DNA of 64,000 nucleotides from Patescibacteria group bacterium. GTDB taxonomy: Bacteria > Patescibacteriota > Patescibacteriia > UBA9934 > GWF2-40-263. The stretch lies in assembly GCA_038065075.1 (NCBI GenBank), contig JBBTRQ010000001.1, positions 2,823 to 66,822 on the forward strand. Reading direction: 5' to 3'. Position numbers and translations under genes: made by a program. Positions 13,457 to 55,713 of this stretch are shown piece by piece. The notes beneath the pieces are model-generated. The model saw only the letters and a program-made list of their open reading frames with translations. It was not told the DNA's origin and made no database searches. Positions within the stretch are counted from its first letter, which is position 1, and each line of letters starts with the position of its first letter.

Positions 13457-13466
13457 ATGTTTCTTG

Positions 13467-13524
13467 GTAGCCCCAGGCTTTAGCCTGGGTGCAGCCGCAG
13501 CCCAGGCTAAAGCCTGGGACTACC
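13467..13524. repeat. palindromic repeat family 2, two inverted copies (GGTAGCC-CCAGGC-TTTA-GCCTGG-GTGCAGC / mirror) in the lepB-hisS spacer, 11 nt upstream of the hisS start
   Basis: Perfect nested hairpins seen in sequence. Confidence 0.65.
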
Positions 13525-13552: not shown

Positions 13553-14158
13553 CTACAAATTATAACTGGGAAGATCGAACGTGCCGATGCGAGAGAACGG
13601 AAGGCCGCGAACCCAGACGCGTCCGATGACGTCATCGCGGGTGATGGCGCCGAAACTGCGGGAGTCCAGGCTGGAGTCGCGGTTGTCACCAAACATGTAG
13701 TACTCATTATCCCCGAGGGTCACCCGAACCTTGCCGGTCGTCGACTCCTCTAGGTATGCCTCTTCGAGCACCAAACCGTTTGGATGCTCTGTGTTATAGA
13801 CCATGACGTTCCCGCCGGTCACTTCTATCGTCTCGCCAGGGAGTCCCACCACACGCTTGATGAAATACTGGCTGCGATCGCGTGGATATTTGAAGACGAC
13901 GATCTCTCCACGAAATGGATTACGGAAACGATAGGTGAGCTCGTCGATGATGAGATACTCTTGATCGTAGAAATTTGGTTCCATGCTTGCCCCTTTAACG
14001 TAGAACGGCTGGATGAGGAAGTATCGGATGGGAATGATGATGGCGCTGGAGATGATCACGATCTGGACGATCTCGAACAAAAAGGACAGCACAGCGCCCC
14101 CCACAGGCCCAAACCGATCGTAGAGTTTATCTTCAAAAGCCGAAAAACGTGAGGACAT
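13553..14158 (-). CDS. lepB: signal peptidase I
   Basis: S26 motifs GASMEPNF, YFIKRVVGLPGE, GDNRDSSLDSR. Confidence 0.85.
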   Translation of the reverse strand: MSSRFSAFEDKLYDRFGPVGGAVLSFLFEIVQIVIISSAIIIPIRYFLIQPFYVKGASMEPNFYDQEYLIIDELTYRFRNPFRGEIVVFKYPRDRSQYFIKRVVGLPGETIEVTGGNVMVYNTEHPNGLVLEEAYLEESTTGKVRVTLGDNEYYMFGDNRDSSLDSRSFGAITRDDVIGRVWVRGLPFSRIGTFDLPSYNL

Positions 14159-14255
14159 AAAGATGTGTACAGCGTATCAAGAAAATCAGACCGGGGCAAT
14201 AGATCACCACGAAAAAACAAAACGGATGCTTAGTCCGTTTTGATCTTGCGAATAT

Positions 14256-14570
14256 CTATTTATTTATCCACTCAAGCATTCGATTGAGTGCCGACTTGGG
14301 AGCCAGTTGCAAATACCCTTGCGGAAGATTATAGCCAGGTACTGTGTAACCTGGTGGTGATGTATAGCCGCCCGGGGTGGTGTATCCAGGTGTTCCATAA
14401 CCGGGAACGAGGCTTCCACCAAACAAACTTCCACCTGAGCGGTTCTTGAGTGAAACAGCTCCCGCGGCTGCCGCGGCCGCTAAGACAACCACCAGACCAA
14501 CGGCTACGGCCGTCCGTGTCGAACTAGTTACCTGCGTCTTCGTCATAGATATCAAATGAAGTGAATTCAT
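14256..14570 (-). CDS. small secreted/membrane protein with PGY/TPGG tyrosine-glycine-proline repeats
   Basis: ORF track; N-terminal hydrophobic segment plus GYTTPGGYTSPPGYTVPGYNLPQGY low-complexity. Overlaps the start of the upstream gene, so start uncertain. Confidence 0.35.
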   Translation of the reverse strand: MNSLHLISMTKTQVTSSTRTAVAVGLVVVLAAAAAAGAVSLKNRSGGSLFGGSLVPGYGTPGYTTPGGYTSPPGYTVPGYNLPQGYLQLAPKSALNRMLEWINK

Positions 14571-16614
14571 AAATGGTCATGCCCTCCTGATTCAATAGAC
14601 GATCAGCTCCTTCCTCCAGCTCCGCAAGAAGCTCCGGCGTCCACGCCCAATAGGCTGGCGCGGCAAAGTAGATGCGACGAACACCTGTCTCTTGAGCCAT
14701 TCGCAAGTAGGCTTCCTGAGAGGGCCCTTCATAGATCGTCGAGGTGTAGAGCCCGTAGAGTGATCCCCCTGTAGGGATAGCATACCAGAGAATCTCTTGA
14801 CCTTCATACCGATAGGTGTGGGCAAAACCAAACTCCTGAATAGCCGCCGCGCTCATGAGTTGGTGAGAAAGCACCAGATAAGGTTCGCCCTGACTCGCTT
14901 CCTCAATCAAATGGACTCCTTCGACATCGACAGCACTAACACCTGGAGAGAAGAACGGATACTTCAGGTTGTACTGCGGATAGGAAAAAAACCAAACGAC
15001 CACGACCAGAAGCGCCAGGAGAAACACCCTCCCAAACTCGAATCGGTGCAGACGTGCGAACACAACGACAAGGGGTGGAAGTGCAAACGTATAAAGAGCC
15101 TGCAGGAGACGAAGAGCGAACTCGAGCTGTTCATGCTGGATGATCCCTTCAAACGTGAACAGCGTCGACGCTCCCCAAATCGTCAGGAGGAGTCCAAGGG
15201 AAAACGTCAGGTGCCCTCGTGCGTTCGCGCGAACCGACGTACATGCGCATACAACGACCAACGATGTGAGGAACACCACGATGGGCAACCAATATCGGAA
15301 GTCATACAGGAAATCGAGTGCCCAGGGAATATACGGATACGGACCCCAGTAGGGACTCGCGAACAATCGGAAGAAGTCTGGAAGTTTTGTGACGAGCAGA
15401 CGGAGGCTACCACCGAGGTTCGTGTGCGATGCAATGGCTAGCATCGCGGGAACGGTGAGACCGACGAGCAGGACAGCGGCGGCGATGAACGCTATCCTCG
15501 CCAAAAAACTCTGCCGACCGACCACGAGGCGCTCGAAGAACAAAAAGACGAGAAGCGGCACAGCCAAGAGCGGATGGAACAGGACAGCGGCGACGAGTGC
15601 GAGCATGACCGACGCAAAACAAACTCGTGGTGCGCGAGCAACCCACGGATATGCCACCATAAAACCCAGGAATAGAACATACGTGACCGTGAACGGAACG
15701 GTGAATGTCGCCAGCATGAAGGGAATCGCAAGGATCCCGATCCACCACATGCGGGCCTGGCGTCGTGTAAGTCCCCACCCATGCTCGAACCCAAGGGTAG
15801 CCATGATTGGCAACCAAAGGCTCTCCACAACCGGCACGAGCCAGATGTCGATGAGCTTCACACTCAAGCCAGTCAGATGATGCAACGCGGCGACGATGAC
15901 GTACTGGCCGCTGTAGAGGAGTCGAACGGGCTCGACGACTCCTGTCTGCACGAGTGCCTCCTCAGCCGCGCGGTGCAGGAAGGGATCAAAGCCAAAGCCG
16001 ATGGCATACACGATCGCGGAAACGCTCAATGCGCTGAATGTCACAAACATCCATCCAATGAGCGGAACATCATCATCCCGCTCGCGTGCCGCAAGGATAG
16101 CCGAAACGATCGCGACGAACAGCAGAACAAAAGGCTCAGGACCAAACAGATTCCACGGGCTCACCAGAGGGATGTCTGTGCGCGCCAAGACCATGAGGCT
16201 AATGAGTAGCAGGCTTGCCAGAAGGCTGATGGCGCTGAAGAGCCAGGGTTGATTGCGTTCAATGCTCGGACACGGAAAAAAGCACATAACCCGACCTGAC
16301 CCCACGAGCAAACATCCGATGGTCACGAGCCAGAGGGTGAGCAGAATCATCCTCTCGTCCAAACGACCAACCGAGAGGTAAAGCCCGACCAAAAAAATCG
16401 TCGAGGTACCAAACACGGCCAGGGAACCAACAACAAGGCGCTCCCAAACATCCCTCCCAAAAACGGCCACGCGGCCAATCAAGACGACAACGCAACCAAA
16501 AAAGAGGAGGCTTCCAACCACCCCTATCCACCACATTCCAACACCCACGTTCATGCTCAAAATCACGCTGGCAACCAAAAGCACGATCCGTGGAGGATCC
16601 CAACGCATACTCAC
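14524..16614 (-). CDS. polytopic membrane protein (>=14 TM helices) with C-terminal extracytoplasmic domain; function unknown (glycosyltransferase-C-like topology)
   Basis: ORF track, hydrophobicity pattern. Confidence 0.5.
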   Translation of the reverse strand: MSMRWDPPRIVLLVASVILSMNVGVGMWWIGVVGSLLFFGCVVVLIGRVAVFGRDVWERLVVGSLAVFGTSTIFLVGLYLSVGRLDERMILLTLWLVTIGCLLVGSGRVMCFFPCPSIERNQPWLFSAISLLASLLLISLMVLARTDIPLVSPWNLFGPEPFVLLFVAIVSAILAARERDDDVPLIGWMFVTFSALSVSAIVYAIGFGFDPFLHRAAEEALVQTGVVEPVRLLYSGQYVIVAALHHLTGLSVKLIDIWLVPVVESLWLPIMATLGFEHGWGLTRRQARMWWIGILAIPFMLATFTVPFTVTYVLFLGFMVAYPWVARAPRVCFASVMLALVAAVLFHPLLAVPLLVFLFFERLVVGRQSFLARIAFIAAAVLLVGLTVPAMLAIASHTNLGGSLRLLVTKLPDFFRLFASPYWGPYPYIPWALDFLYDFRYWLPIVVFLTSLVVVCACTSVRANARGHLTFSLGLLLTIWGASTLFTFEGIIQHEQLEFALRLLQALYTFALPPLVVVFARLHRFEFGRVFLLALLVVVVWFFSYPQYNLKYPFFSPGVSAVDVEGVHLIEEASQGEPYLVLSHQLMSAAAIQEFGFAHTYRYEGQEILWYAIPTGGSLYGLYTSTIYEGPSQEAYLRMAQETGVRRIYFAAPAYWAWTPELLAELEEGADRLLNQEGMTIYEFTSFDIYDEDAGN

Positions 16615-17570
16615 GACTGTTTATCCCCCACCCAATCGTCAACAACCTCCTGAATGTCTCTGGCGGTCACACAGTCCTCGCATGTCTTAGCCGCGGCGTG
16701 CACGAGTCCTAGCGGGACACCGTGCCCGCGTCGTGAAAATTCAATCGCCACCTTGGCAGACGCCTCATCCATTACATCGATTGCCTTATCCGGAAGGAAT
16801 CGATTTTTGATTCGTTCATTCGAAAGCCGCACCGCTTCTTCAAGTGCTTCATCTTCAATCTTCACCTTATGGAACGTCTCATAGGCTGGGCGAATATGCT
16901 TGAGCATAGCCAACGCTTCCTGCGGGGTCGGTTCATCAACCGTCACGGGCTGGAATCGACGATCGAGCGGTTGGTCTTTTTGAATTGTACGCTCGTACTC
17001 CGCCCAGGTTGTCGCACCAATAACTTGAACCTCCCCACGAGCCAGCACAGGCTTGAAAACATCAGACACGTTGAGCGATCCCTCGGCACCCGAAAGCTGA
17101 TCGAGCATATGCACTTCGTCGATGAACAAGATCGCGCGACCTTGCATGCCTTGAAGTTCTGCTAACATCCGACGAAGCCGCGACTCCATCTCACCGCGAT
17201 ACTTGGTATCAGAAACAATCGAAGTCAAATCCAATGAGAGCAGCTGCTTATCCTTGAGTCCCTCGGGAACATCCCCGCTTGCTATACGACCGGCGAGCCC
17301 TTCGACAATGGCGGACTTCCCAACACCGGGCTGTCCGATAAGCAAAGGATTGTTCTTGGTTTTGCGCATGAGGATGTGGATCATGCGTTCAATCTCTTCC
17401 TCACGGCCAAAGAACAACTCCAGCTTATGCTCGCGAGCGAGCTGAGTAAGATCCTTTGAAAACGATCCAAACGAAGCTGGCTTTTTGGACGAAGGCCGGC
17501 GAAAGAAGACGAAGAATCCTCCCGCCGCAACCAAGATGAGAACCAGAACAAACAAGAGAGAGTCAGACAT
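16611..17570 (-). CDS. membrane-anchored AAA+ ATPase resembling the first nucleotide-binding domain of ClpA/ClpB/ClpC
   Basis: N-terminal TM helix; Walker A GQPGVGKSAIVEGLA, ..YRGEMESRLRRML.., ILFIDEVH. Confidence 0.7.
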   Translation of the reverse strand: MSDSLLFVLVLILVAAGGFFVFFRRPSSKKPASFGSFSKDLTQLAREHKLELFFGREEEIERMIHILMRKTKNNPLLIGQPGVGKSAIVEGLAGRIASGDVPEGLKDKQLLSLDLTSIVSDTKYRGEMESRLRRMLAELQGMQGRAILFIDEVHMLDQLSGAEGSLNVSDVFKPVLARGEVQVIGATTWAEYERTIQKDQPLDRRFQPVTVDEPTPQEALAMLKHIRPAYETFHKVKIEDEALEEAVRLSNERIKNRFLPDKAIDVMDEASAKVAIEFSRRGHGVPLGLVHAAAKTCEDCVTARDIQEVVDDWVGDKQS

Positions 17571-17575
17571 ATGAA

Positions 17576-20269
17576 TTACCAGTTACCCAATGATCCACCA
17601 TAGGCTCCAGCGTCAGCCGGAGATCCGTCGACATCGGTTTCAGAAGAATCGATGTCGACACCCGGTGAACCCGGTTGGAGATGGAAGTCGAAGTTAAGAA
17701 TGTCGGTGCTGAGCGTCGGGTCGGTTGTCGTGCCGTCACCGATGTAGAGAGGTTCTGCGTCGATATTTCCGACCCCGCTATCGAAGAGATCCCACGCACC
17801 GTTTGCAGACACGCCCGGAGGAACAGCCCAGAGCAACGAGTAGTCCAAGCTGGAGCTCGCGTATCCCTGCATTTGCAAGTCGTTGTTGTGTGAAGCAATC
17901 AGATGCTCAAAGGATGAGTCCGGCCCAGTGATCGCCGCGATGGTACCGCTGTTGTCGGCAAACGTGAGGTAGTCGACTTCGACTGTTCCGGCTTCCAGCG
18001 GATCGACATTGAGCGCGCTTGGCAGGGTTGGATGATTGGTTCCAACCACGTTGCGAGCAAACACGGCGTTGTGGATGATGCCCTTCTGCGGTTGAAGCGA
18101 AATGCCGGCCGGGGCGTAATGGGAGCTATTGTCGCGTACGTCCATCGCTTCACCTTCGAACTCCCCGCCGAGAATCGACCCAACGCCGTGAGTGATGGCC
18201 GAATTCCCCGTCGCGGTCACCCCAACCATGCTTGTTGATGTGTCCGCCACACCCATCCAGTTGAACTGAAATGCTCCGTGCGCGCCGTGTGAAAGATTGT
18301 TTATAAAGGAAACTTCTTTGAGGCCGGAATCGGTAGCGAGCGAAAGCATCGCACCACCCTCAGCGGAGATATTCCCTTCAAACAAGACATCAACAAACGA
18401 CTGTGTAAGAGAAGCTGTTCGTACAGCGCCGCCCTGCATGGTCGCCTCGTTCCCGATGAAGGATGCCGAGGCAATGTCAAGAACCACTTCCTGCACCGGC
18501 AAATTATTGGACGATCCCCAGATCGCCCCGCCAGCGTTTCCCGCGACGTTATTCGTGAAGGTCGTATGATCCTCAACAGAAAGGTCGCACCCATCAACGG
18601 AAATCGCGCCACCGAAGCCCCAATTGGCGCTCGCGGCCATGTTTCCGTCGAAACTCGATGTGCCCACATCAAACGCGGAAATACCTTGATTATCTACGCA
18701 AGAGAGCGCGCCGCCGTATCCATACCCCGTCGTGCCCGCTTGATTGCCGTTGAATGTGGATCCATCTATGACGACGCTTGTGTCACTCGCATTGACGGCA
18801 ATGGCTCCGCCGTTCGCACGGGCGGAATTGTCTGTGAATACGTTCACCTCAACCAGCACATCAGAATTATCCAAAACGTATATCGCACCGCCATCTTGCC
18901 CAGCGCTATTTTGCGTGAACGTCGACTCGACAACATCTACATTCCCACCGGAGACAAACAACGCTCCGCCTATGCCGGCTTCGTTGCTCTGGAACTGCGA
19001 TGATTCGATGAGCACGTCGGTAATGTTGACGGCGGAAAGAGCGCCGGCGGTGGCGGCCGCATTGTCCGTAAACTGTGCGCGAGCCACGCGAACCACTGTC
19101 TCACCTGAAACCCAAACACCTCCACCGGTTCCAGATGGAGCGGAGTTTTGCGAAAATGTCGAATCTTGAACTTTCAAACTTCCAGATCCCAAGTAATTTG
19201 TATTGTGAAAGATGGCTCCTCCGCCACCGGTCGCGGCCTGGTTGTTTTCAAATATCGCATTCGCGAGGTCTATCGAAATGTCACTACCGTCCGCGTATAT
19301 GGCTCCTCCGGCCTGTTGAGAAATGTTGCCTGTGAAAACGACATTGCGGCCGCTATAGTCCGCCTCTTCCGAGAGATAGATCGCCCCTCCACCCTCTCCA
19401 TATGGCGCGGTCGATGCTTCATTCCCGCTATAGGTCGATCCGACGTCGCTAACCACCGCGGAACCGGCCAAGGAAATGGCCGATCCTCGATTGGCCTCAT
19501 TGGAATCGAACGTATTGTTTTCAAAGGTTGCCTGCACCTCGCCCGTAAGCAGAAAAGCTTTTCCAAGAAGATTGGAAAATGTGGAGTTACGAACAATAAG
19601 TTGGCTTGAGTAGGCGGCAAGCACCCCGACCGCTTCACTGCTCACTGAAGAAAGCCCATCCATGAGTACTCCCACAAGAGTAAGGTTCACCGATGTGTTG
19701 CTCGCGGCAATCGCAAGCGGACCTGAGGTGAATCCGATCCGCTGAATCGTAAGCATGCGCAACGACGTGGGCGCGGCTGACGAATCGTACGGATGCAACA
19801 GAGTAGCGCTTGGATTTTCCCAATGAGTCAATTGGGAACCCGCATCCGAGAAAATCAACACGGGTTCTGTGCCCGTGCCATATGACGTCGACCATGGGGC
19901 AAGATCCAGGTCGATCGTTGTTCCTGTCTGCGTGTACGTAATCGCCCCGCCGCTCGACGATCCTCCACGCAAACAAATCTTGATCACTCCATCCCCATCG
20001 CGGTCGCCGTAGACTTGCGCGTCCGCAAACGCCAAAGACGGGAGCGCGTATTCAAACGGATTCACGGGCGTGGGTCGCACGATATAGTCTGCGGTGAGTA
20101 AGCCCAGGCCACAGACTATGGGCACAGGAGCCACCTTCACTTTCGTTTGCTTTTTCAAAAGGGCGGCACCTGACACGGCCGCAAATCCGCTCACCACCGC
20201 CAAAAAAAAGATAACGGCTGTGGCAACGAATACTTTTGCAAATGTAACGGAACGTGTTTGTGTCGTCAT
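17576..20269 (-). CDS. secreted parallel beta-helix protein with Pmp-like GGA[I/L/V]..FxxN repeats (897 aa)
   Basis: N-terminal signal/TM; about 15 repeats of GGAIY/GGALF followed by F..N(S/Q)A. Confidence 0.6.
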   Translation of the reverse strand: MTTQTRSVTFAKVFVATAVIFFLAVVSGFAAVSGAALLKKQTKVKVAPVPIVCGLGLLTADYIVRPTPVNPFEYALPSLAFADAQVYGDRDGDGVIKICLRGGSSSGGAITYTQTGTTIDLDLAPWSTSYGTGTEPVLIFSDAGSQLTHWENPSATLLHPYDSSAAPTSLRMLTIQRIGFTSGPLAIAASNTSVNLTLVGVLMDGLSSVSSEAVGVLAAYSSQLIVRNSTFSNLLGKAFLLTGEVQATFENNTFDSNEANRGSAISLAGSAVVSDVGSTYSGNEASTAPYGEGGGAIYLSEEADYSGRNVVFTGNISQQAGGAIYADGSDISIDLANAIFENNQAATGGGGAIFHNTNYLGSGSLKVQDSTFSQNSAPSGTGGGVWVSGETVVRVARAQFTDNAAATAGALSAVNITDVLIESSQFQSNEAGIGGALFVSGGNVDVVESTFTQNSAGQDGGAIYVLDNSDVLVEVNVFTDNSARANGGAIAVNASDTSVVIDGSTFNGNQAGTTGYGYGGALSCVDNQGISAFDVGTSSFDGNMAASANWGFGGAISVDGCDLSVEDHTTFTNNVAGNAGGAIWGSSNNLPVQEVVLDIASASFIGNEATMQGGAVRTASLTQSFVDVLFEGNISAEGGAMLSLATDSGLKEVSFINNLSHGAHGAFQFNWMGVADTSTSMVGVTATGNSAITHGVGSILGGEFEGEAMDVRDNSSHYAPAGISLQPQKGIIHNAVFARNVVGTNHPTLPSALNVDPLEAGTVEVDYLTFADNSGTIAAITGPDSSFEHLIASHNNDLQMQGYASSSLDYSLLWAVPPGVSANGAWDLFDSGVGNIDAEPLYIGDGTTTDPTLSTDILNFDFHLQPGSPGVDIDSSETDVDGSPADAGAYGGSLGNW

Positions 20270-20318
20270 AGGATAAAATCAGTATATCAAAAATCCCCAA
20301 GACTAGCTTGGAGATTTT

Positions 20319-20395
20319 TGGTGGGCGTGAGAGGGCTCGAACCTCTGACCTCTGTCGTGTGAGGACAGCGCTCTAACCAACTGAGCTACACGCCC
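20319..20395 (-). tRNA. tRNA-Val (anticodon CAC), CCA encoded
   Basis: Cloverleaf folded by eye from the reverse complement GGGCGTGTAGCTCAGTTGGTTAGAGCGCTGTCCTCACACGACAGAGGTCAGAGGTTCGAGCCCTCTCACGCCCACCA. Confidence 0.85.
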
Positions 20396-20402
20396 GTGAG
20401 GT

Positions 20403-20427
20403 CGAGCGACAGAGTAACACGGTGTGC
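20403..20427 (-). promoter_or_regulatory. conserved 25-nt block 7 nt upstream of tRNA-Val, identical to the block at 24213-24237
   Basis: cgagcgacagagtaacacggtgtgc present at the same spacing upstream of both tRNA-Val genes. Confidence 0.4.
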
Positions 20428-20470
20428 GCCCCCAGTCCTTGAAGTTTCCGGATGATCTGATAAGCTCCGG

Positions 20471-21154
20471 ATGGGTACTCGAACACTGGAGGTTCTCATG
20501 ACCGACAATCGGACATCGGTGGCTCGATTGCTGGACCAGATGTCCAGGGAACGCCTGCAAGCCTTGGATGAACGCCTGGCCAAGCTCGAACGGCCATGGA
20601 TCGAGCGGACGCACGATGCGTTCAAGGCTATCCCTGGTGCGCTTCGGGAGCTTGCGTCCGCGCCGGGCCCGTGGGGAGCCATGGTACTGATAATGCTGGC
20701 TCTGGTGGTCGGCATGCCTCTCATGGATCCAAACACCCGAAGCGCCATTGCCGAAGACTGGGTCATGGTCATGCTGCAACTGGGAGAGATCTTCCTGGCA
20801 CTGATCCTTGCCCTGCTGGTCTTCATGGGTCTGGTACAAGCAATCGATCGCTGGTCTGCGCTGCGCGGCATGGTACGCCGTGGCGAGATCGATCTGGTAC
20901 GAGCGTTTCGCCGCCGACCGGAGGTCTTCCTGCGCGCGCATAATCTGACGCTGCAACGACAGGGTCTGGAGTGGGTGTTGGAGGCGCTGGAGTTCCTTCA
21001 GAGACACCCGGACGCGACCGGCTTCGACGCGGCCGACTTGGACGCGGCCAAGACGCGCACCACGCTCGCGCTCATCCAGATCATCGAACAGATCGACCAT
21101 AACGCAGCGGAGCTTGGCGATCCGCTGCAAAGACGATCTCGACGGCCAGCTTGA
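20471..21154 (+). CDS. hypothetical membrane protein (227 aa), high GC3
   Basis: ORF track; the + frame has TM segments and a coding-like composition, whereas the overlapping minus ORF 20303..21295 is Arg-rich and judged spurious. Confidence 0.4.
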   Translation: MGTRTLEVLMTDNRTSVARLLDQMSRERLQALDERLAKLERPWIERTHDAFKAIPGALRELASAPGPWGAMVLIMLALVVGMPLMDPNTRSAIAEDWVMVMLQLGEIFLALILALLVFMGLVQAIDRWSALRGMVRRGEIDLVRAFRRRPEVFLRAHNLTLQRQGLEWVLEALEFLQRHPDATGFDAADLDAAKTRTTLALIQIIEQIDHNAAELGDPLQRRSRRPA

Positions 21155-21363
21155 TCCCGCCGCTATCGACTGACGCCACGCGACGCCATACGCAAGGCGA
21201 GCTAGCCATCGCCACCTTCCCACCCGGGGAGGTTTTTTATACAAGGCATTTTCAAATTCAATATCGCTGCACGGTATCCGGACGAACAGCAACAATTCGC
21301 GAAACGATACGACAACAAAAAAACGGCTAAGGCGTATCTGGACAACACCAACTCCATACTTCT

Positions 21364-21693
21364 ATGGCTACAAAAAAAGTTCCGAAACAGATAAAAGAGC
21401 TCGTACTGGGATATACCAACCGTGTGGAAAAAGAGATGAGGCTACCTGTCGGCAGTGTCTATGTCTACGGATCCCATGCGAAAGGCACTGCGACAAAGCA
21501 CTCTGATATTGACGTATGTGTTATCTCTCCGACATTCCGTGATCCACTCAAGGCGCTCCAACAGCTACTTGGGTACCGCACCGTCGACGAGGTCATGGCG
21601 GGGATTGAGCCGGTTGGTTTTTCTGCCAAACAATTCAAGCGCGGTGGAATCCTCATTGACGAAATCAAACGGACAGGGATACAGGTTCGATAA
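21364..21693 (+). CDS. nucleotidyltransferase-domain protein (Pol-beta superfamily, MNT antitoxin-like), no adjacent HEPN partner
   Basis: GSHAKGTATKHSDIDVCV motif. Confidence 0.75.
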   Translation: MATKKVPKQIKELVLGYTNRVEKEMRLPVGSVYVYGSHAKGTATKHSDIDVCVISPTFRDPLKALQQLLGYRTVDEVMAGIEPVGFSAKQFKRGGILIDEIKRTGIQVR

Positions 21694-21737
21694 AAAACCC
21701 TCGAACGAAAAACACTCCATGCTAGGTGGAGTGTTTT

Positions 21738-21797
21738 TGGTGGGCGTGAGAGGGCTCGAACCTCTGACCTCTGTCGTGTGAGGACGGCGCTCTAACT
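21738..21797 (-). pseudogene. 3' fragment of tRNA-Val (positions about 17-76 plus CCA), 63/64 identical to the 20319-20378 part of the intact tRNA-Val
   Basis: Direct repeat tttttggtgggcgtgagagggctcgaacctctgacctctgtcgtgtgaggacGgcgctctaac; lacks the 5' acceptor/D-arm strand. Confidence 0.6.
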
Positions 21798-21823
21798 GAT
21801 AAAAAAAGACGCTCAAGTGAGCG

Positions 21824-22927
21824 TCAGCGCGTCGTCCTGGGTCTGCGCGGCGGGAGGACGTTGCCGCCAGGAGCCTGGGTCGTCGCCTCAATTTCATGGT
21901 CGGCGGCATTCGCGGCGACGTTGTGAGTCACGTCGCGCCGAAGTTCGCGTAGCTTCCTATCCAAGTCGTCGCACTGGGGAACGCTCATGAGCAGGCCCAT
22001 CGCGATGGGCTCGATGTCCTTGGGGAAGAATGCATCGAGTTCACCGGCCTGCAGCCGAGCCGTCGAAGTCTGTTCGATGAGCGCAAACGCGCGTTGGCGA
22101 TCCTCATGCGTCTGGCACTCGATGAGACGCGTGGCAAGACGATCACGCAACCCCTGTGCACGCTCCCGGAGCGTCTGCAGATGCATCTGCGCCTCGCTGG
22201 ACGCTCCGGACAGTACTGCCGCCATCTGCTCTTCATTCCTCTTCATCGACACAAGCGCCGCGTCGATGACCCTCAGAGCTTCTCCGGTTTCCCTTAGCGC
22301 CTGGGTGATACTGTCGGGCTTCTTGGGCCGCAAGTTCTCTATGCCGTCGGGGTAGTCCTCAAACAGCGCGCCCCCAAGCCAGGGCGACACGGAGCGCAGA
22401 GCGCTCTGAAGCACCGCCTGGATTTTGAGCACGGCATGCCGTTCGTGCCACAAGCGTATATGTTCTTCCGCGGATTCGATTCCCTCCTGCACCGCCGCCA
22501 GCGTCTTCTGGTGTTCGCCGAGTTGGAGCGTAGGCATCGGAGCTGTGTATCGCTGCTGCAGCTCCGTAAGGAGCGAGCGCAGATCCTTGCACTGCCGCTC
22601 CAGCCGCCGCGCGTTCTGCACTGCCTCTTCCATTGCGCCGTCCACGGGCGAACCATGTCGCCAATCACGGTATCTCTTATCACGCGCCTCTTTCCAGCTC
22701 TCGTACGCGGTGAGGATTCCGAAGAAACACATCCGCAAGACGAAAGCGATCAGGAAGGCGCCTCCAAGACACACGGCCAGCACAACCAAGATCTGAACGG
22801 CCACGATAAGGATGTGGACAAGCGCGCGAACCGCTTCGACCACGAAAATGCCCACGGCCACAACGCACAAGACGGCGAGGAGGCCAATGCACCCATAGAT
22901 GGTGTCGTCTCCCTGGTTGTTGCTCAT
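21824..22927 (-). CDS. membrane-anchored (2 TM) coiled-coil protein, 367 aa, unknown function
   Basis: ORF track; high GC3. Confidence 0.5.
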   Translation of the reverse strand: MSNNQGDDTIYGCIGLLAVLCVVAVGIFVVEAVRALVHILIVAVQILVVLAVCLGGAFLIAFVLRMCFFGILTAYESWKEARDKRYRDWRHGSPVDGAMEEAVQNARRLERQCKDLRSLLTELQQRYTAPMPTLQLGEHQKTLAAVQEGIESAEEHIRLWHERHAVLKIQAVLQSALRSVSPWLGGALFEDYPDGIENLRPKKPDSITQALRETGEALRVIDAALVSMKRNEEQMAAVLSGASSEAQMHLQTLRERAQGLRDRLATRLIECQTHEDRQRAFALIEQTSTARLQAGELDAFFPKDIEPIAMGLLMSVPQCDDLDRKLRELRRDVTHNVAANAADHEIEATTQAPGGNVLPPRRPRTTR

Positions 22928-22962
22928 GGTGAGCTCCTTACGGGAACAATTCCGTATCTTGT

Positions 22963-24003
22963 CTACCGGTTACCGCTCTCGTTGGAACCTCGACGTCGCC
23001 CTCCGATCGCATCGGCAATCGTCTTGCCTAGGAATGCAAGCGTCGGATCCACTCCGGCTCCCGAAAGCTCTTTGACGGCGCAGTGTCCTTCCGCCACGGT
23101 TGAACGGACGCTCTGCCAGGCCACGGATCGAGCAACGAACCCGATCTGCCGAATGTGCTCATTCAGGAGACCTCCGCCGTCCTGCGCCATAAGCCTGTTG
23201 AGCTCTCCAAATCGCGCCGGGGTGAGCTCCACCGACCGGGTAATGCCGGCAGCGCCCAACGCCAGCTGCGCGACGGTCTGCACCCGCCCGCGAATGGCGG
23301 CCTCGGCCTCCATGTTGAGCTCGGTGAGCACAAGCCGTGCCGTCTGCGGCGTCACGTGCCGCTGGTCATCCACCATGACTCCCGCCACCACGCGCAACTG
23401 CGCCTCCATCCTTTCCCCGCCCGGGTTGAGATGCACCGTCACATCGAACTCTTGATCCGATGTATTGATGATAGCCACAGGCTCGCCCAAGTAGGGAAAC
23501 CCTGTGCTGAATCTCCCGCGCTGGAGCGCAGAATCGTTGCTGGCCGTAATCCAGCCGCGATCGCTACCCCTGCGAGCCATGAAACGGTTTATACACACGA
23601 GCTCCTCATTGGGCTGTAGGAGCCTCACCCATGTGAAGTCCGCCGGGCGAACGAACTTGCCGGTGTGGATCTTGAATCCGTGCAGCTTTTCGAAGTCGAC
23701 TGGCTCGGATTTCGAACGGCTCTTCTCGGACAGCTTGAAAGCCGCCAAGCCCACAACGACAACCGCGATGAGCATGCCCGCCAGAATCGGAAGGATCACT
23801 TTCATGAGCATCAACGCAAGCGGGATGCCCAGAACCACCGCGAGCACCCGAACCCAGGGCTTCTTCATCGCCGCGGCCATCGGAGGTGGGAGCTTGATGC
23901 GCTTGGGCGAGTTCACCGGCGCCGCCGTCTTCACAGGAAGATCGCTCTGATCCCGAAGAACCGGGAGCGCTCCTTTGCGTCCTTCTTCATTGTTTCCAGT
24001 CAT
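22963..24003 (-). CDS. single-pass membrane protein with a C-terminal domain weakly resembling SPFH/band-7 (346 aa)
   Basis: ORF track; TM at aa 50-90. Confidence 0.45.
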   Translation of the reverse strand: MTGNNEEGRKGALPVLRDQSDLPVKTAAPVNSPKRIKLPPPMAAAMKKPWVRVLAVVLGIPLALMLMKVILPILAGMLIAVVVVGLAAFKLSEKSRSKSEPVDFEKLHGFKIHTGKFVRPADFTWVRLLQPNEELVCINRFMARRGSDRGWITASNDSALQRGRFSTGFPYLGEPVAIINTSDQEFDVTVHLNPGGERMEAQLRVVAGVMVDDQRHVTPQTARLVLTELNMEAEAAIRGRVQTVAQLALGAAGITRSVELTPARFGELNRLMAQDGGGLLNEHIRQIGFVARSVAWQSVRSTVAEGHCAVKELSGAGVDPTLAFLGKTIADAIGGRRRGSNESGNR

Positions 24004-24128
24004 GATGCACTCTCCTTATGTAAGGAACTTTCCGATCACACATTCACATAAATTCTCGCGTACGTCAATGCATCGTGCATAGCAAAAACCGAACAAGGGA
24101 TCTGTCCGGTTTTGTTGAGTCGATCAGA

Positions 24129-24205
24129 TGGTGGATGTTGGAGGACTCGAACCTCCGACCTCTGTCGTGTGAGGACAGCGCTCTAACCAGCTGAGCTAAA
24201 CATCC
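24129..24205 (-). tRNA. tRNA-Val (anticodon CAC), second copy with a different acceptor/T stem
   Basis: Reverse complement GGATGTTTAGCTCAGCTGGTTAGAGCGCTGTCCTCACACGACAGAGGTCGGAGGTTCGAGTCCTCCAACATCCACCA. Confidence 0.85.
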
Positions 24206-24283
24206 ATATATGCGAGCGACAGAGTAACACGGTGTGCACCCCTTTTCAAGAGCGGGTAGAATCGTTAGAATGAACCAGGAACT

Positions 24284-25978
24284 ATGGTCGAGAAGCCACG
24301 CGTCAATTTACTCAAACGGCATCACACCCCGCGAGCGACGAAACGATCGCCCGCGCTTTTTTTTGGTCGCCGGTTGTTTATCACGTTAGCGGTGTTAGCG
24401 GCGGTCGGCATCATCTTCTCCTCTCAAGTAAGCTCGACCTCCGAAAGCTCCGGCTCCTTCCCTGACTTTTCTCTTTTCTCAGCCATCAAGCATCTTGTAT
24501 CTTCGGGAGACCGGGACCTTGAAGGTGAGGAAGAAGACCGCGTGAATTTCCTTCTCCTGGGCATCGGAGGTGAGGGACACGACGGTCCGCAACTGACTGA
24601 CACCATTATCTTTACGAGTTTTCGTCCTTCCGACGGCGCGGTCGCGATGATGTCGCTCCCCCGCGACATGACGGTTCCCATCCCTAATTATGGGTATCGC
24701 AAAGTGAACCATGCCAATGCCTACGGCGAGATGGACAATCCGGGTTCGGGGCCTGAACTCGCCTCGCAAGTCATCGGGGACGTCTTGGACGAAGAGATCA
24801 ACTATTACCTCCGCATAGACTTTAAGGGCTTTGAAGAATTTGTGGACGCCATCGGCGGCGTGGATGTGTACATCGAAAACGGATTCACCGATTCAAACTA
24901 TCCGATTGAAGGAAAAGAATACGACGAGTGCGGTGACGAACCGTCCGAAACATCCGACCTCTTGGTCGAATCTGACCCAGAAACGACAGAGGTAGCCGCA
25001 GGCTTTAGCCTGCGCGAGTCGCAGGAAGAACCCACCGAGCTCGCGCAGATTCTCGCGATCGACGAAGAGGAAGAAATCCTCGAAGAAGCCCTCGATGAAG
25101 AAAATCTCCCCGAGGTAGTGCCGGACTATTCCTGCCGCTTTGAGTCCATCACCTTTTATGAGGGCTGGACGCACATGGATGGAAGAACCGCGCTCAAGTT
25201 CGCCCGCTCACGACATGGGAACAGCGGTGATGGCTCGGACTTTGCTCGCAGTAAGCGCCAACAAAAAATCATCCTCGCCGTAAAAGACAAAGTGCTGTCG
25301 GCCTCGACCTTTTTGAACCCCTCACGCATCTCCAAGATGATGGACACGCTGAAAGCCAACATCTCGACCAACCTGGACGTGTGGGAGATTGTTCGACTGG
25401 CGGGTGAGTTCAAAAACGTGAGCGCTTCGGAAATCACCAACCATGTCATCGACGCGTCCGACGCTTCCCCGTTGTACGCGACGGTTCTCAACGGCGCGTA
25501 TGTGCTCCTCCCCAAGAACGACGATTGGGAACCGATTCAAAACATCGCTGAACATATTTTCACGCCGGACTCAGAACTCAACACCCAGTTTGCTGATGCC
25601 CCTGAACAGAAACCGAAATTCGTGAAAGTAGAAATCCAAAACGGCACAAACATCACGGGACTGGCGTTCACCACCTCGCAACTGTTGGACGGCCAGGGAT
25701 TTGACGTGGTGAAGGTCGGCAACGCCGTGAGCCGCGACTATGCCCATACGGTCATCTACGATCTCACCAACGGCCAGCGCTCAGATGAACTCAAGGCCTT
25801 GCGTGACTACCTGCAGGCGGACGTGACCTTGTCGGCAACCGGTTGGATGCTTTCCGGCGACGTCGTGCCACAGGAAATTGCATTCTCTTCGGACGATTAC
25901 GAACGATTAGCCACCCAAGAAAACATTGACTTTTTGGTCATTCTGGGAGAGTCTGCGAGCGGCCTGGCACGATACTAA
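24284..25978 (+). CDS. LytR-CpsA-Psr (LCP) family cell-wall polymer ligase with an acidic insertion and a C-terminal LytR_C domain
   Basis: N-terminal TM; LCP motifs (DTIIFTS.., MSLPRDM, YLRIDF.GF, ..KFARSRH.., RQQ); insert aa about 205-275 is Glu/Asp-rich and contains a repeat family 2 copy. Confidence 0.85.
   Translation: MVEKPRVNLLKRHHTPRATKRSPALFFGRRLFITLAVLAAVGIIFSSQVSSTSESSGSFPDFSLFSAIKHLVSSGDRDLEGEEEDRVNFLLLGIGGEGHDGPQLTDTIIFTSFRPSDGAVAMMSLPRDMTVPIPNYGYRKVNHANAYGEMDNPGSGPELASQVIGDVLDEEINYYLRIDFKGFEEFVDAIGGVDVYIENGFTDSNYPIEGKEYDECGDEPSETSDLLVESDPETTEVAAGFSLRESQEEPTELAQILAIDEEEEILEEALDEENLPEVVPDYSCRFESITFYEGWTHMDGRTALKFARSRHGNSGDGSDFARSKRQQKIILAVKDKVLSASTFLNPSRISKMMDTLKANISTNLDVWEIVRLAGEFKNVSASEITNHVIDASDASPLYATVLNGAYVLLPKNDDWEPIQNIAEHIFTPDSELNTQFADAPEQKPKFVKVEIQNGTNITGLAFTTSQLLDGQGFDVVKVGNAVSRDYAHTVIYDLTNGQRSDELKALRDYLQADVTLSATGWMLSGDVVPQEIAFSSDDYERLATQENIDFLVILGESASGLARY
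24991..25018. repeat. palindromic repeat family 2 copy (GGTAGCC-GCAGGC-TTTA-GCCTGC-GCGAG) in-frame inside the LCP gene (encodes ..EVAAGFSLRE..)
   Basis: Sequence identity of architecture with 8967-8994 and 13467-13524. Confidence 0.6.
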
Positions 25979-27392: not shown

Positions 27393-27611
27393 TTAGGCTC
27401 GAACCGAAATAGGCAACTCGTTTCGTTTCAAGGACGCACACACAGAGGAAGTGAGACGTCGGGAGGCATCGAGAATCTCGATGCCGACCAATTTCTTTTT
27501 GCTGTTGTAATCAAAGACAATCCCCTCTTCGACCTCATCGCTTTCCTTGTAGACACTCTCGTCGAAGCGGATATAGAGAGCATCTTTCTTGTCGTCGTAG
27601 TGGAATCTCAT
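27393..27611 (-). CDS. DUF2283-family protein (putative antitoxin)
   Basis: M.F.YD...DALYIRF..., ..LVGIEILDAS. Confidence 0.6.
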   Translation of the reverse strand: MRFHYDDKKDALYIRFDESVYKESDEVEEGIVFDYNSKKKLVGIEILDASRRLTSSVCASLKRNELPISVRA

Positions 27612-27859
27612 AAGTATTTTTTTACTTTAGAAGAGACAAAGGCCGTCACAACTTCCATTCGTCTGCCCGATATGACATCATAGACGACGATCAACACGTA
27701 GCGGTTTCTCGTTTCTGGGAGATACCCGATGGCACGGAACCGATCTTTGCTCTGCCGGTGAAGAACCTCTGGCTGTCGGATGACGAGTCGTATCGACGCC
27801 TCAGATAAGCAACGCTCCTTCATCTGTTGCTTCGCATGATCGGAAAATACGATCCTCAT
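27608..27859 (-). CDS. DUF4258-family protein (putative toxin), 4-nt overlap with the downstream DUF2283 gene
   Basis: MRIVFSDHAKQQMKER.. motif. Confidence 0.6.
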   Translation of the reverse strand: MRIVFSDHAKQQMKERCLSEASIRLVIRQPEVLHRQSKDRFRAIGYLPETRNRYVLIVVYDVISGRRMEVVTAFVSSKVKKYL

Positions 27860-27983: not shown

Positions 27984-28526
27984 GTGAAAAAGTCAAACCA
28001 CTCTATGAAAGCCATCTTCGGCCTTGGCAACCCGGGAAAAGAATACGTTGGGACACGACACAACGTCGGGTTCTTGGTTGTCGATGAGTTGGCTCGCCGA
28101 TATGGTGGCGAATTTGCGAACAAGCGTTCGCTCGAGGCAGAGATCGCGGAAGTCCTGATCGACGAACAACGTGTTCTCCTCGTGAAGCCCCAAACCTTTA
28201 TGAACGTCAGCGGCCGGTCGCTGTCGGCCGTTCTCTCGAAGTATCCGGTGAAACTGGAGGAAGTGGTCGTGGTCTACGATGATGCCGACCTCCCCTTTGG
28301 CGATGTGCGCGAGAAGGCGAGCGGGAGTAGCGCCGGACATCGGGGCATGGAATCAATTCTCTCAACCCTTCCCAAAGGCTCGAGTGTTTCTCGCGTTCGT
28401 GTCGGCATTGGCCGGCCCACGCATCCAGATATCCCACTGGACGAATTCGTTCTCGCAAAATGGACCGCAGACGAACAAAAGCAGATCCCATCCGCCATCG
28501 ACTCGGCGATTGAAAAACTTGTATGA
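27984..28526 (+). CDS. pth: peptidyl-tRNA hydrolase
   Basis: FGLGNPG..Y..TRHNVGF. Confidence 0.9.
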   Translation: MKKSNHSMKAIFGLGNPGKEYVGTRHNVGFLVVDELARRYGGEFANKRSLEAEIAEVLIDEQRVLLVKPQTFMNVSGRSLSAVLSKYPVKLEEVVVVYDDADLPFGDVREKASGSSAGHRGMESILSTLPKGSSVSRVRVGIGRPTHPDIPLDEFVLAKWTADEQKQIPSAIDSAIEKLV

Positions 28527-29605
28527 CCGAGGCCGACCGACCATATTGGGTCGCACTTGCCCAGTTCCGGCCCTTCGGAGCTGTGCGGCTCTCACGGCTT
28601 GCACGTCGCTTTCCAACGATGGAGCGCGCATTTGGGGCGAGCGCGGTGGAGCTTGTCGAAGCCGGGATCGAACCGGAGATCGCCAGCCGTTTTTTACAAG
28701 AACGTATCCACATCAATCCGGAGGAACTCTCTCGCGAGCTTGAGGTCCATGGGGTTCGGCTGGTCACCATTCAAGACGCCATCTATCCACCGCTCCTCAA
28801 AGAAATTTACGATCCACCGGCGGTCCTGTTTGTGCGCGGTGTCCTGCCAGACCCCAACCGCAAACATCTCGCCGTGGTGGGTTCGCGCAAAGCGTCCAAG
28901 TACGGCCTGCGCGTCGTCGACGAACTGATCGAGCCGGTGGCGCGCGCGGGTGTGGTCATCGTGAGTGGCTTGGCGTACGGCATCGACGCGACCGCGCACG
29001 ACGCGGCTCTGCGCGCGGACGGGACGACGATCGCCGTCTTGGGAAGCGGTGTGGATCCTGAGAGTATCTACCCCTCCCATAACCGGGCACTGGCCTCGCG
29101 GATTCTTGCACAGGGTGGCGCTCTGATCTCTGAGTTTCCTCTGCATACCGCCCCGCTCACACAACACTTTCCGATTCGCAACCGTATCATCGCGGGACTC
29201 TGTCACGGCACGCTGGTCGTAGAAGCCGCAATCAAGTCGGGTTCGCTCATCACCGCCCGTTCAGCCATGGACTCCAACCGGGATGTGTACGCGGTTCCAG
29301 GATCCATCCATTCTCTGCTTTCAGAAGGCCCTCACGAGCTCATCAAAAATGGCGCCACGCCCGTGACCAAACCCGAGGACATCTTTGGCATTGAACCGAT
29401 GCCCGAACCTGTCGCGTCCTACCAACCGGTCAACGAAGAAGAAACACTCATCTGGTCGCGCCTGTCGCGCACGCCACTTCACGTCGACGAGCTGATCCGC
29501 TCCACACATCTGCCCACGCCCAAACTCTTGAGCACGCTCACGCTCATGGAAATGAAAGGCGGAATCCGTCACGAGGGAGGACAATTTTATACGCGTCACG
29601 CTTGA
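28523..29605 (+). CDS. dprA: DNA processing protein DprA/Smf
   Basis: VVGSRKAS.YG..V, SGLAYGIDA, Rossmann-like DprA core plus C-terminal wHTH. Confidence 0.85.
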   Translation: MTEADRPYWVALAQFRPFGAVRLSRLARRFPTMERAFGASAVELVEAGIEPEIASRFLQERIHINPEELSRELEVHGVRLVTIQDAIYPPLLKEIYDPPAVLFVRGVLPDPNRKHLAVVGSRKASKYGLRVVDELIEPVARAGVVIVSGLAYGIDATAHDAALRADGTTIAVLGSGVDPESIYPSHNRALASRILAQGGALISEFPLHTAPLTQHFPIRNRIIAGLCHGTLVVEAAIKSGSLITARSAMDSNRDVYAVPGSIHSLLSEGPHELIKNGATPVTKPEDIFGIEPMPEPVASYQPVNEEETLIWSRLSRTPLHVDELIRSTHLPTPKLLSTLTLMEMKGGIRHEGGQFYTRHA

Positions 29606-37255: not shown

Positions 37256-37374
37256 CATCTCACCACGACCGCCCCAGGCGGCCTGTCCCCCGAAGCTTCA
37301 CGCGAAGGGGGATTTTCTCTTTGTGGAAAATTATTGTTTCACTCTTCGACAAAAAAGAAGTATCCTATCTGTGT

Positions 37375-55673: not shown

Positions 55674-55713
55674 CAAACAAACATCCCCCTCGTGTGAGGG
55701 GGATGTTTGTTTG
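55674..55713. repeat. palindromic repeat family 1 copy with a 16-bp perfect stem (caaacaaacaTCCCCCtcgtgtgaGGGGGAtgtttgtttg)
   Basis: Seen in sequence. Confidence 0.6.

Follow-up and report, generated by a model that had tools for sequence, protein, structure and literature searches.

A mosaic variable region with three tRNA-Val copies between the signal peptidase I and LytR-CpsA-Psr genes of a Patescibacteria group bacterium

Overview

The locus described here lies in a 64,000-nucleotide (nt) stretch of DNA from a Patescibacteria group bacterium, a groundwater member of Candidatus Uhrbacteria (GenBank assembly GCA_038065075.1, contig JBBTRQ010000001.1, positions 2,823 to 66,822), referred to below as the window. 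It features two intact tRNA-Val(CAC) genes, Val1 and Val2, and a third tRNA-Val copy that is truncated at its 5' end. The three copies are part of a mosaic variable region of ~10 kb between the genes for signal peptidase I and a LytR-CpsA-Psr (LCP) protein, and this region was probably, though far from certainly, built by serial recombination between lineage variants of the locus. As a recombination hotspot it is genuine but rather ordinary, and it is neither a classical mobile island nor a discrete island. It belongs with the known tRNA-linked variable regions and with decayed or non-autonomous arrays, and it offers a clean, well-bounded example of a reduced genome of the candidate phyla radiation (CPR) gaining accessory envelope genes at a single hotspot linked to tRNA genes, where no recombinase is encoded. 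Neighbouring populations in the same aquifer still show intermediate configurations. The locus also carries a caution, which is that tRNA fragments together with foreign-looking genes are not by themselves proof of an integrase-driven island; comparison of tRNA alleles and of their flanks can separate integration scars from recombination mosaics.

Along the plus strand, the order in the variable region is 104-aa, 696-aa and AAA+ genes (aa, amino acids), PMP897, Val1, p227, a minimal nucleotidyltransferase (MNT) gene, the tRNA fragment, p367, p346 and Val2. The genes and their flanks are as follows (TM, transmembrane; ORF, open reading frame).

13553-14158, minus strand: signal peptidase I gene, conserved left flank (Pfam Peptidase_S26, E 3.3e-40)
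14256-17570, minus strand: segment C core, with genes for a 104-aa TM protein rich in Gly, Tyr and Pro, a 696-aa polytopic membrane protein and a 319-aa membrane-anchored Clp-like AAA+ protein (ORFs)
17576-20269, minus strand: PMP897, 897-aa beta-helix/PMP-repeat surface protein, between Val1 and the AAA gene (Pfam Chlam_PMP 1.9e-17, Beta_helix 1.9e-16)
20319-20395, minus strand: tRNA-Val(CAC) copy 1, Val1 (ARAGORN, Rfam)
20471-21154, plus strand: p227, protein with two TM segments, 61% GC (ORF)
21364-21693, plus strand: orphan nucleotidyltransferase of the MNT type, 109 aa, 49% GC (Pfam NTP_transf_2, PF01909, 2.9e-11; Polbeta 2.1e-7)
21738-21796, minus strand: 5'-truncated tRNA-Val, positions 19-77 (alignments)
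21824-22927, minus strand: p367, N-terminal membrane anchor and long helical region, 61% GC (ORF)
22963-24003, minus strand: p346, predicted to be a very divergent membrane-anchored SPFH-fold protein, 61% GC (AlphaFold2 and Foldseek)
24129-24205, minus strand: tRNA-Val(CAC) copy 2, Val2 (ARAGORN, Rfam)
24284-25978, plus strand: LCP gene, conserved right flank (Pfam LytR_cpsA_psr, 2.8e-34)

Alleles of the three tRNA-Val copies

Val1 and Val2 are identified by both ARAGORN and the Rfam tRNA model, which scores them at 70.7 and 70.3 bits, respectively, against a gathering score of 29. Both genes had been placed at the same positions in a preliminary description of this DNA that was made from the sequence alone. 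The third copy comprises 59 nt and is called as a tRNA by neither ARAGORN nor Rfam. It is identical to Val1 at 58/59 positions and thus represents a Val1-type allele with one mismatch, while only 52/59 positions are identical to Val2, with seven differences. When the five T residues beside the fragment are included (21733-21796 against 20314-20377), the match is 63/64. This is the figure that was given in the preliminary description for a 3' tRNA repeat, and re-alignment limits the tRNA part of that repeat to 59 nt. The window contains three occurrences of a 31-nt core pattern, against none expected from shuffled sequences. A further tRNA fragment was looked for at the far-left junction (14159-14260), and none is present there.

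Val1 and Val2 are identical at 67/77 positions and differ at 10/77 (13%). Going from Val1 to Val2, three acceptor stem pairs are altered on both sides (G3-C70 to A-U, C4-G69 to U-A, and G7-C66 to U-A), one T-stem pair is altered on both sides (A49-U65 to G-C), and one D-loop base and one T-loop base differ. Three of the four compensated pairs, those of the acceptor stem, straddle position 18/19, which is the breakpoint of the fragment; positions 1-18 of Val2 therefore hold acceptor changes that pair only with the 3' end of Val2 itself. Val1 is 100% identical to the tRNA-Val of three related loci (L005, L016, and L023) and is the allele native to the clade. The nearest sampled allele to Val2 is that of L011, and Val2 sits in the ancestral position beside the native promoter.

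An integrase leaves a scar in which the intact tRNA joins a native 5' part to a 3' part from the element, and the native 3' part becomes the displaced fragment. Because the 5' 18 nt of Val2 co-vary with its own 3' end, the whole Val2 gene is foreign and the crossover was not inside the tRNA. The attL/attR scar that had been proposed for the repeat is contradicted by this co-variation and by the match of the fragment to Val1 rather than to the adjacent Val2, and the word "non-canonical" in the same proposal is apt. The fragment had also been placed on the 5' side of the intact tRNA. That holds for Val1, the only copy then compared, where the fragment is upstream; it does not hold for Val2, where the fragment is downstream and thus on the canonical side.

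Promoters, terminators, and junctions

The tRNA-Val copies are accompanied by the following promoter, terminator, and junction features.

20289-20318, minus strand: Val1 terminator hairpin (sequence and terminator scan)
20396-20432, minus strand: truncated copy of the putative tRNA-Val promoter, with the extended -10 (TGTTACTCT; hexamer 20411-20416, plus strand) kept and the -35 lost (repeat match)
20433-20436, no strand: novel junction between the promoter copy and the p227 upstream region (promoter homology ends at 20432, L029 homology begins at 20437)
21705-21741, no strand: hairpin terminator common to the MNT gene (plus strand) and the tRNA fragment (minus strand) (inverted repeat with 15-nt arms, 93% complementary)
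21808-21825, minus strand: p367 terminator, abutting the tRNA fragment (terminator scan)
24206-24283, minus strand: putative native tRNA-Val promoter region and spacer to LCP, with the -10 at 24221-24226 and the -35 TTGAAA at 24244-24249 in plus-strand coordinates (homology)

About 37 nt upstream of the tRNA are common to Val1 and Val2, a shared flank that the preliminary description did not mention. There is a 25-nt exact repeat between the Val1 upstream block (20396-20432) and 24213-24237, with none expected by chance, and the two blocks are 29/30 identical over positions -8 to -37 and contain a TGnTACTCT extended -10. The Val2 upstream sequence reads TTGAAA, 17 nt, TACTCT with the TGn of an extended -10, and a promoter role for both blocks is suggested by this consensus. 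The native region is homologous to the sequence upstream of tRNA-Val in L007, L008, and L016. The promoter-proximal flank of Val2 is similar to L007 and L008, and the 7 nt directly upstream of Val1 resemble L016.

Each of the three tRNA-Val copies has its own hairpin terminator. The Val1 terminator is most like the tRNA-Val terminators of L016 (z 9.1) and L008 (z 6.3), the terminator of the fragment resembles those of L011 (z 7.5) and L023 (z 6.4), and the terminator downstream of Val2 has no match in any of the sampled relatives. The similarity between the copies runs on, diverged, into the terminators and does not stop at a core. Since the terminators, the flanks, and the allele matches all differ, the copies are whole tRNA loci of different lineage origin and not duplicated att cores. 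A simple local duplication with identical flanks, which had been named as an alternative, is not seen, as the three copies carry different terminators.

The two novel joins are clean, one being at a gene-end terminator (21797/21798) and one inside the promoter (20433-20436), and neither shows a target-site duplication. At 20433-20436 no repeat is visible either; homology to L029 begins at 20437, four bases past the end of the promoter copy. At the other join, the hairpin and T-run of the p367 terminator are homologous to those found after p367 homologues in L027, L028, and L031, and this homology ends within ~3 nt of the fragment, which locates the join to ~3 nt. The breakpoints differ: those of the window are tRNA position 19 and position -37, and the extra copies in L005, L008, L011, and L023 are near full length. 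The array can be read as a stack of three units, each with its own few lineage-specific genes, most of which encode membrane or envelope proteins. Unit 1 consists of the native promoter, Val2, its terminator, p346, and p367. Unit 2 consists of the tRNA-Val truncated at position 19 and its terminator, beside MNT and p227. Unit 3 consists of the 37-nt promoter remnant, Val1, its terminator, PMP897, and the AAA, 696-aa, and 104-aa genes. On one side every block passes seamlessly into conserved sequence, and on the other it ends in a novel join that lacks a repeat.

Extent of the variable region in related loci

Twenty related loci were retrieved by pattern scans through the LCP protein, and all ORFs of the window were mapped on them. 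The relatives found in this way are mostly labelled Candidatus Uhrbacteria. On the left flank the gene for histidyl-tRNA synthetase (HisRS) precedes the signal peptidase I gene. On the right the order LCP-Der-Pth-DprA-TopA is conserved, and LCP-Der-Pth is kept in all relatives. In 12 empty-site loci (L005, L007, L009, L010, L012-L014, L017-L020, and L024) and in the short contig L025, the signal peptidase homologue is 83-1901 nt from LCP with 0 or 1 tRNA-Val between. The flanks are 83-244 nt apart with no tRNA in L009, L010, L012/L019, L014, and L025, and a single intact tRNA-Val lies between them in L005, L007, L017, L018, and L024. L013 and L020 feature 1.7-1.9 kb between the flanks, with a membrane protein gene and a NUDIX gene and no tRNA. 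The segment is thus absent from the syntenic regions of related genomes, as expected in the preliminary description for an inserted element. Because the relatives have the arrangement signal peptidase-(tRNA-Val)-LCP, the variable region is ~10 kb long (~14.2-24.2 kb) and not 3.9 kb. The unit that had been delimited at 20.3-24.25 kb is therefore replaced by a longer region, which is mosaic.

Parts of the array are found separately in other loci. L016, whose LCP is 82% identical, features the 104-aa, 696-aa, and AAA genes, a tRNA-Val 100% identical to Val1, a promoter, and LCP, and it has neither PMP897 nor the cassette genes. The core genes of segment C are absent from this position in L005, L007, L017, L018, and L024. 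L029, a 1.2-kb contig from another Hainich well, carries a p227 homologue (91% nt identity) directly beside the signal peptidase gene (82% nt identity), with neither a tRNA nor segment C between the two. Described in these terms, the window array joins a block like that of L016, a block like that of L029, and a third block. Other contents occur in further relatives. L008 has an intact tRNA-Val, a 231-aa ORF, a second, disrupted tRNA-Val copy, and then a gene for orotidine monophosphate (OMP) decarboxylase; in L007 a phosphoribosyltransferase gene separates the tRNA from the signal peptidase gene; and in L005 a GIY-YIG ORF follows the promoter and precedes the tRNA, and a second tRNA-Val is present in decayed form. 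The varied gene contents of L016, L029, L008, L007, and L005 indicate that the locus is a recurrent gene-gain site in this clade.

Extra decayed tRNA-Val copies lie beside the intact gene in L005 (9428-9556), L008 (~1122-1215), L023 (1-60), and L011 (558-712 and 825-921). Decayed copies in the relatives are interrupted by short (~26-nt) GC-rich palindromes such as GATCCCCCCGCTCGCGAGCGGGGGGA. The palindrome is inserted at the same D-loop point (GGTTA|GAGC) in L005 and L008, and another interrupts the variable loop in L005. These insertions may represent a small palindromic element that prefers tRNA-Val sequence, or a shared ancestral insertion. The GIY-YIG nuclease-domain ORF of L005 (82 aa, minus strand, 9677-9925, Pfam E 9e-19) lies between the native promoter and the intact tRNA-Val, with the displaced decayed tRNA-Val just downstream, in an arrangement that resembles a small insertion of a nuclease plus a tRNA.

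Reality of the arrangement

The same locus is found in several Hainich groundwater assemblies and in GCA_964359885.1. Three 20-kb loci from other assemblies (L001, L002, and L032) are collinear with the window at 99.8-99.99%, and L032 shows one mismatch and 35 gap openings in 20.6 kb, an error profile typical of long reads. A metagenome assembler could in principle have concatenated three strain haplotypes of one locus via the shared tRNA repeat. The mosaic does look like L016-like, L029-like, and third haplotypes strung together, and the repeats are exactly the points at which short-read contigs end or close into themselves (L003, 2429 nt; L035, 1474 nt, or 1419 + 55). However, L001, L002, and the long-read-like L032 are collinear through all three tRNA-Val copies, and the joins at 20433-20436 and 21797/21798 are outside any sequence shared with other haplotypes, so that an assembler would be unable to create them. 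Because loci from other assemblies are collinear and the novel junctions lie outside repeated sequence, the array is not an assembly chimera; the artefact reading is largely refuted, with a likelihood close to nil.

A circular element was also considered for L035, whose first 55 nt equal its last 55 nt, and for L003, both ends of which are in tRNA repeats. It was rejected since 1419 + 55 nt is exactly what an assembler with k=55 would produce on a repeat-flanked segment, here at 4x coverage.

Search for a recombinase

No recombinase domain was found by Pfam in ten proteins of the locus (p227, the 109-aa MNT, p367, p346, PMP897, the 319-aa AAA+ protein, LCP, the 696-aa and 104-aa proteins, and signal peptidase I), and none is listed in the precomputed Pfam annotations of the window at ~13-64 kb. 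Both results agree with the earlier statement that there is no integrase or recombinase gene. None was found in the variable-region ORFs of six scanned relatives (GIY-YIG, phosphoribosyltransferase, NUDIX, and three without a family) or in the L008 OMP decarboxylase, and the ~20 related loci with sequence on that side of LCP have no integrase at this locus. Scans of IMG/VR with p367 and with the Val2-specific 3' end, aimed at a phage or element attP, gave no match. The element has no recombinase gene of its own and does not qualify as a self-mobile island.

Origin of the array

In the explanation that we prefer, the array would result from successive recombination between different lineage variants of the same tRNA-Val locus. 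One end of each event would be a homologous exchange anchored in a conserved flank (LCP, promoter, or tRNA) and the other end an illegitimate join. The mode may have been homology-facilitated illegitimate recombination or a Campbell-type insertion of a circular intermediate, with donor DNA from related lineages, plausibly after DNA uptake. Each event would have added a donor tRNA-Val with its cargo; the resident copy would have been severed at tRNA position 19 in one event and at position -37 in the other. Homology-facilitated illegitimate recombination is outlined for natural transformation in Acinetobacter, Streptococcus pneumoniae, and Pseudomonas stutzeri (PMC3240628). The present locus resembles the process, as outlined there, in having a seamless conserved side (LCP/promoter or signal peptidase), a novel join without a repeat, and apparently related donors. 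It differs in that the process is a mechanism and not a family, its action here is presumed, and a circular or sister-chromosome intermediate is needed for the 37-nt duplication. A gene for DprA, which is competence-related, lies at 28523-29605. The p367 cargo appears to come from within the clade, as judged from its homologues, which are chromosomal neighbours of lexA in other Uhrbacteria.

Several points weigh against this explanation. No donor genome with promoter-Val2-p346-p367 or with p227-MNT-tRNA-Val was found. The promoter blocks of Val1 and Val2 are alike at 29/30 positions, yet each differs from every relative at several positions, and this likeness hints at intragenomic duplication or gene conversion, which would produce it more easily than import from a diverged donor. 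A simple linear event with one anchor would delete sequence rather than duplicate the 37-nt block, hence the circular or sister-chromosome intermediate that is assumed. The extent of the fragment, from the anticodon arm to the 3' end and downstream of an intact tRNA, also fits a remnant of site-specific integration. Natural competence is assumed from genes such as dprA alone, and the recombinase search covers the 64-kb window from ~13 kb on.

The locus shares several features with tRNA-targeted islands and prophages (P4-like, with tyrosine integrases), namely its position at a tRNA gene, its absence from relatives, a 3' repeat downstream of an intact tRNA, and a cargo of accessory genes of slightly different composition. 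It differs from them because there is no integrase, the repeat mismatches the intact tRNA beside it, that tRNA is no chimera, the array holds another complete tRNA together with a promoter remnant, the boundaries vary, and the units are tiny (1.3 and 2.3 kb). In short, relatives have an empty site, and the window locus has no integrase, no repeat of the same tRNA, and no chimeric tRNA. Arrays of cis-mobilizable elements (CIMEs) formed by accretion are another parallel. In such a CIME-like history, an integrase specific for tRNA-Val would have integrated elements serially into the 3' part of the tRNA, and the integrase and most genes would later have been lost, leaving att-like tRNA repeats around small cargo remnants that a trans-acting integrase might still move. 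The order of intact Val2, cargo, and 3' fragment has the canonical orientation for this, the anticodon arm to the 3' end is reportedly the tRNA part usually contained in att sites, the segment is absent from relatives, and L008 likewise has an intact tRNA-Val, one ORF, and a second tRNA-Val copy. Integrase-less, att-flanked tandem remnants are documented for the Streptococcus ICESt/CIME elements (PMC5704250) and at ssrA in Dehalococcoides, a groundwater lineage with a small genome (PMC3146451). Those arrays resemble the present one in having tandem integrase-less units that are split by repeats of the end of the target RNA, are variable between strains, and lie beside a small RNA gene. They differ in sharing one core and in having integrase-bearing kin at the same site (PMC5704250, PMC3146451), whereas here the cores vary in extent and no integrase-bearing member occurs among the sampled relatives. 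Integration and transfer genes are absent from the window locus, and its tRNA repeats, taken as candidate att sites, differ in extent. No integrase-bearing element at the same att site was found at the locus in the sampled Uhrbacteria loci or in IMG/VR. The alleles argue against a CIME-like history, since the fragment matches Val1 rather than Val2, which lies upstream of it, the first 18 nt of Val2 hold the compensating halves of three acceptor pairs so that no chimera of native 5' and element 3' parts exists, and in the second repeat pair (fragment and Val1) the fragment is on the wrong side. The repeat boundaries vary from position 19 to position -37 to near full length in relatives, the similarity of the copies continues into the terminators, and integrase genes are lacking in the ~20 related loci and in the window from ~13 kb, as are IMG/VR matches to p367 or the Val2 3' end. 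A CIME-like origin is therefore possible but unlikely.

A purely local history would consist of an old tandem duplication of tRNA-Val and its promoter, followed by divergence, partial deletion of one copy, and independent gene insertions. The promoter blocks of Val1 and Val2, which are closer to one another than to any relative, are consistent with it, as are the extra decayed copies in L005, L008, L011, and L023; the D-loop palindrome shared by L005 and L008 implies that duplication at the locus is old and recurrent in the clade. However, the two tRNAs differ by 13% with four compensated pairs while their promoters are near-identical, which is the reverse of what divergence after a duplication would give. 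Additionally, three other lineages have exactly the Val1 sequence and the allele nearest to Val2 is that of L011, the terminators of the three copies point to different relatives, and L016 and L029 hold pieces of the array separately, all of which make a purely local origin improbable. A further idea, which we regard as distinctly unlikely, is a specific route of gene gain, either an integrase-independent "landing pad" at the Uhrbacteria tRNA-Val or an unrecognised trans-acting recombinase. Copies of the whole tRNA locus (promoter, tRNA, and terminator) would in that case serve as portable homology for swapping and stacking cassettes between CPR lineages through DNA uptake and recombination, and displaced tRNA copies would be inactivated by truncation or, in relatives, by GC-rich palindrome insertions at fixed positions. 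If true, it would provide a route of gene gain in tiny genomes with few classical mobile elements. A literature search on tRNA-linked islands in CPR/Patescibacteria found nothing relevant.

Cargo genes p346 and p367

p346 has no Pfam hit, including to the Band_7 profile (PF01145). A search of 1.84 billion representative proteins revealed eight distant homologues (28-41% identity), and the other two of the ten hits are near-identical fragments of p346 itself. The Band_7 profile matches one of nine p346 homologues (E 0.03), and a profile search of the homologues against PDB sequences gave noise only. AlphaFold with the single sequence yielded a mean predicted local distance difference test (pLDDT) score of 43, which is unusable, and an alignment of nine sequences was used instead. 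The resulting AlphaFold2 model has a pLDDT of 74, with 85-95 in the core. Foldseek against the PDB matched this model to stomatin, prohibitin, QmcA, HflK/C, and flotillin with E values of 2e-7 to 1e-3 and probability 1.0, and template modelling scores against isolated SPFH domains are 0.7-0.78. The N-terminal hydrophobic block, residues 48-93, is modelled as a helix. By this model p346 has an SPFH fold, and the earlier label "SPFH-like" holds at the level of the fold (E ~2e-7, probability 1.0). p346 resembles the SPFH/Band-7 scaffolds (stomatin, prohibitin, HflK/C, and QmcA-YbbJ) in its N-terminal anchor, its modelled alpha/beta SPFH domain, and its long helices. It differs in falling below detection by Pfam Band_7, in having eight distant homologues, and in lacking an NfeD partner, which is common in prokaryotes but not universal; the neighbour p367 has no NfeD hit in Pfam. 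p346 represents a very divergent SPFH-fold family that sequence profiles miss.

p367 is translated from the same strand 35 nt downstream of p346 and features a hydrophobic block at residues 6-76. No significant family was found for it in Pfam, PADLOC, or PHROGs. It has four homologues with 43-54% identity, and contigs were retrieved for three of these (L027, L028, and L031). L027 is from an Uhrbacteria/Patescibacteria genome, and in L027 and L028 the p367 homologue is immediately upstream of lexA, which hints at a link between the p367 family and the SOS region. A p346-like gene is missing from all three contigs, and no p367-like gene accompanies the best p346 homologue on its 3.1-kb contig. 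Since p367 homologues occur by lexA without p346, and the best p346 homologue without p367, the pair is not a conserved module. In L027 (2993-4976) and L028 (2171-4175), small ORFs come after the p367 homologue and lexA, as does a gene for a Y-family polymerase in L027.

Other cargo, defence scans, and composition

p227 has hydrophobic segments at residues 61-88 and 96-129 and no family in Pfam, PADLOC, or PHROGs. Its sole homologue found (87% aa identity) is the one beside the signal peptidase gene in L029. Hydrophobic segments in p227 and p367 bear out their earlier identification as membrane proteins. The MNT gene had likewise been recognised as an orphan, and this stands: PF01909 is matched at E 2.9e-11, and no HEPN ORF is adjacent, as the MNT gene is followed by a terminator and the tRNA fragment and preceded by p227, which has no Pfam family. 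The 109-aa protein shares the minimal nucleotidyltransferase domain with MNT-HEPN toxin-antitoxin systems and differs from them as a solo MNT without an adjacent HEPN gene. It matches the PADLOC candidate single-gene family PDC-S09 (3.4e-9).

In segment C, the 319-aa protein matches Pfam AAA and AAA_lid_9, and the 104-aa and 696-aa proteins have no Pfam match. The trio lies directly downstream of the Val1-identical tRNA-Val in L016. The AAA+ gene (16611-17570, with an N-terminal membrane anchor) adjoins the 696-aa gene (14524-16614), and this pair is conserved in L016. PMP897 appears to be a separate insertion; no homologue of it lies between tRNA-Val and the AAA gene in L016. All variable-region proteins except MNT have hydrophobic anchors or signal-like N-termini.

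The four cassette proteins were scanned against PADLOC-DB 2.0 and PHROGs. In PADLOC, p227 and p346 had no hits and the best E value for p367 was a marginal 0.0033; PHROGs gave nothing significant, and the two collections gave generic nucleotidyltransferase hits for MNT only. The proposal that p346 and p367, with or without MNT, form a membrane-stress or anti-phage module would explain their tRNA-linked location, as tRNA-adjacent variable regions often carry defence genes. The predicted SPFH fold and N-terminal anchor of p346, the membrane-anchored helical character of p367 and its position 35 nt downstream on the same strand, and the PDC-S09 match of MNT are compatible with such a module. However, PADLOC provides no convincing match for the pair, the two genes do not travel together in relatives, p367 is not NfeD-like, and MNT has no HEPN partner, with two terminators and the tRNA fragment lying between it and the pair. 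The module that the preliminary description had suggested is thus very improbable, and the cargo consists of ordinary accessory envelope genes with no recognisable defence system.

The window has a mean GC content of 55.0% with a standard deviation of 3.9% (1-kb windows). p227, p367, and p346 have 61.4% GC, with GC at third codon positions of 0.70-0.74, the MNT gene has 49%, and segment C has 54%. The description of the region as a GC-rich island is therefore too strong, as p227, p367, and p346 are only 1.6 standard deviations above the window mean and MNT is below it. By tetranucleotide distance, p227 alone stands out, as its value is reached by 0/300 null pieces, whereas that of cassette A is reached by 11% of them and is not unusual.

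Further observations in the window

Two TCCCCC...GGGGGA hairpins occur at 37286-37312 and 55684-55703 (two found versus 0.08 expected), and one of them is ~370 nt upstream of a tRNA-Leu at 37678. Between Der and Pth, positions 27393-27859 hold a 72-aa DUF2283 ORF with an 83-aa ORF next to it; Der and Pth abut or nearly abut in most relatives (e.g., L005 and L009-L014), so the two ORFs are a further lineage-specific insertion of small size and may form a toxin-antitoxin-like pair. At 13466-13520, HisRS and signal peptidase are separated by a long near-perfect palindrome, 30 nt of which match L027 at 97%, which suggests a dispersed palindromic repeat family. Finally, an ORF of >2900 aa on the minus strand at 1-8961 runs off the start of the window and shows 47-80% identity in relatives.

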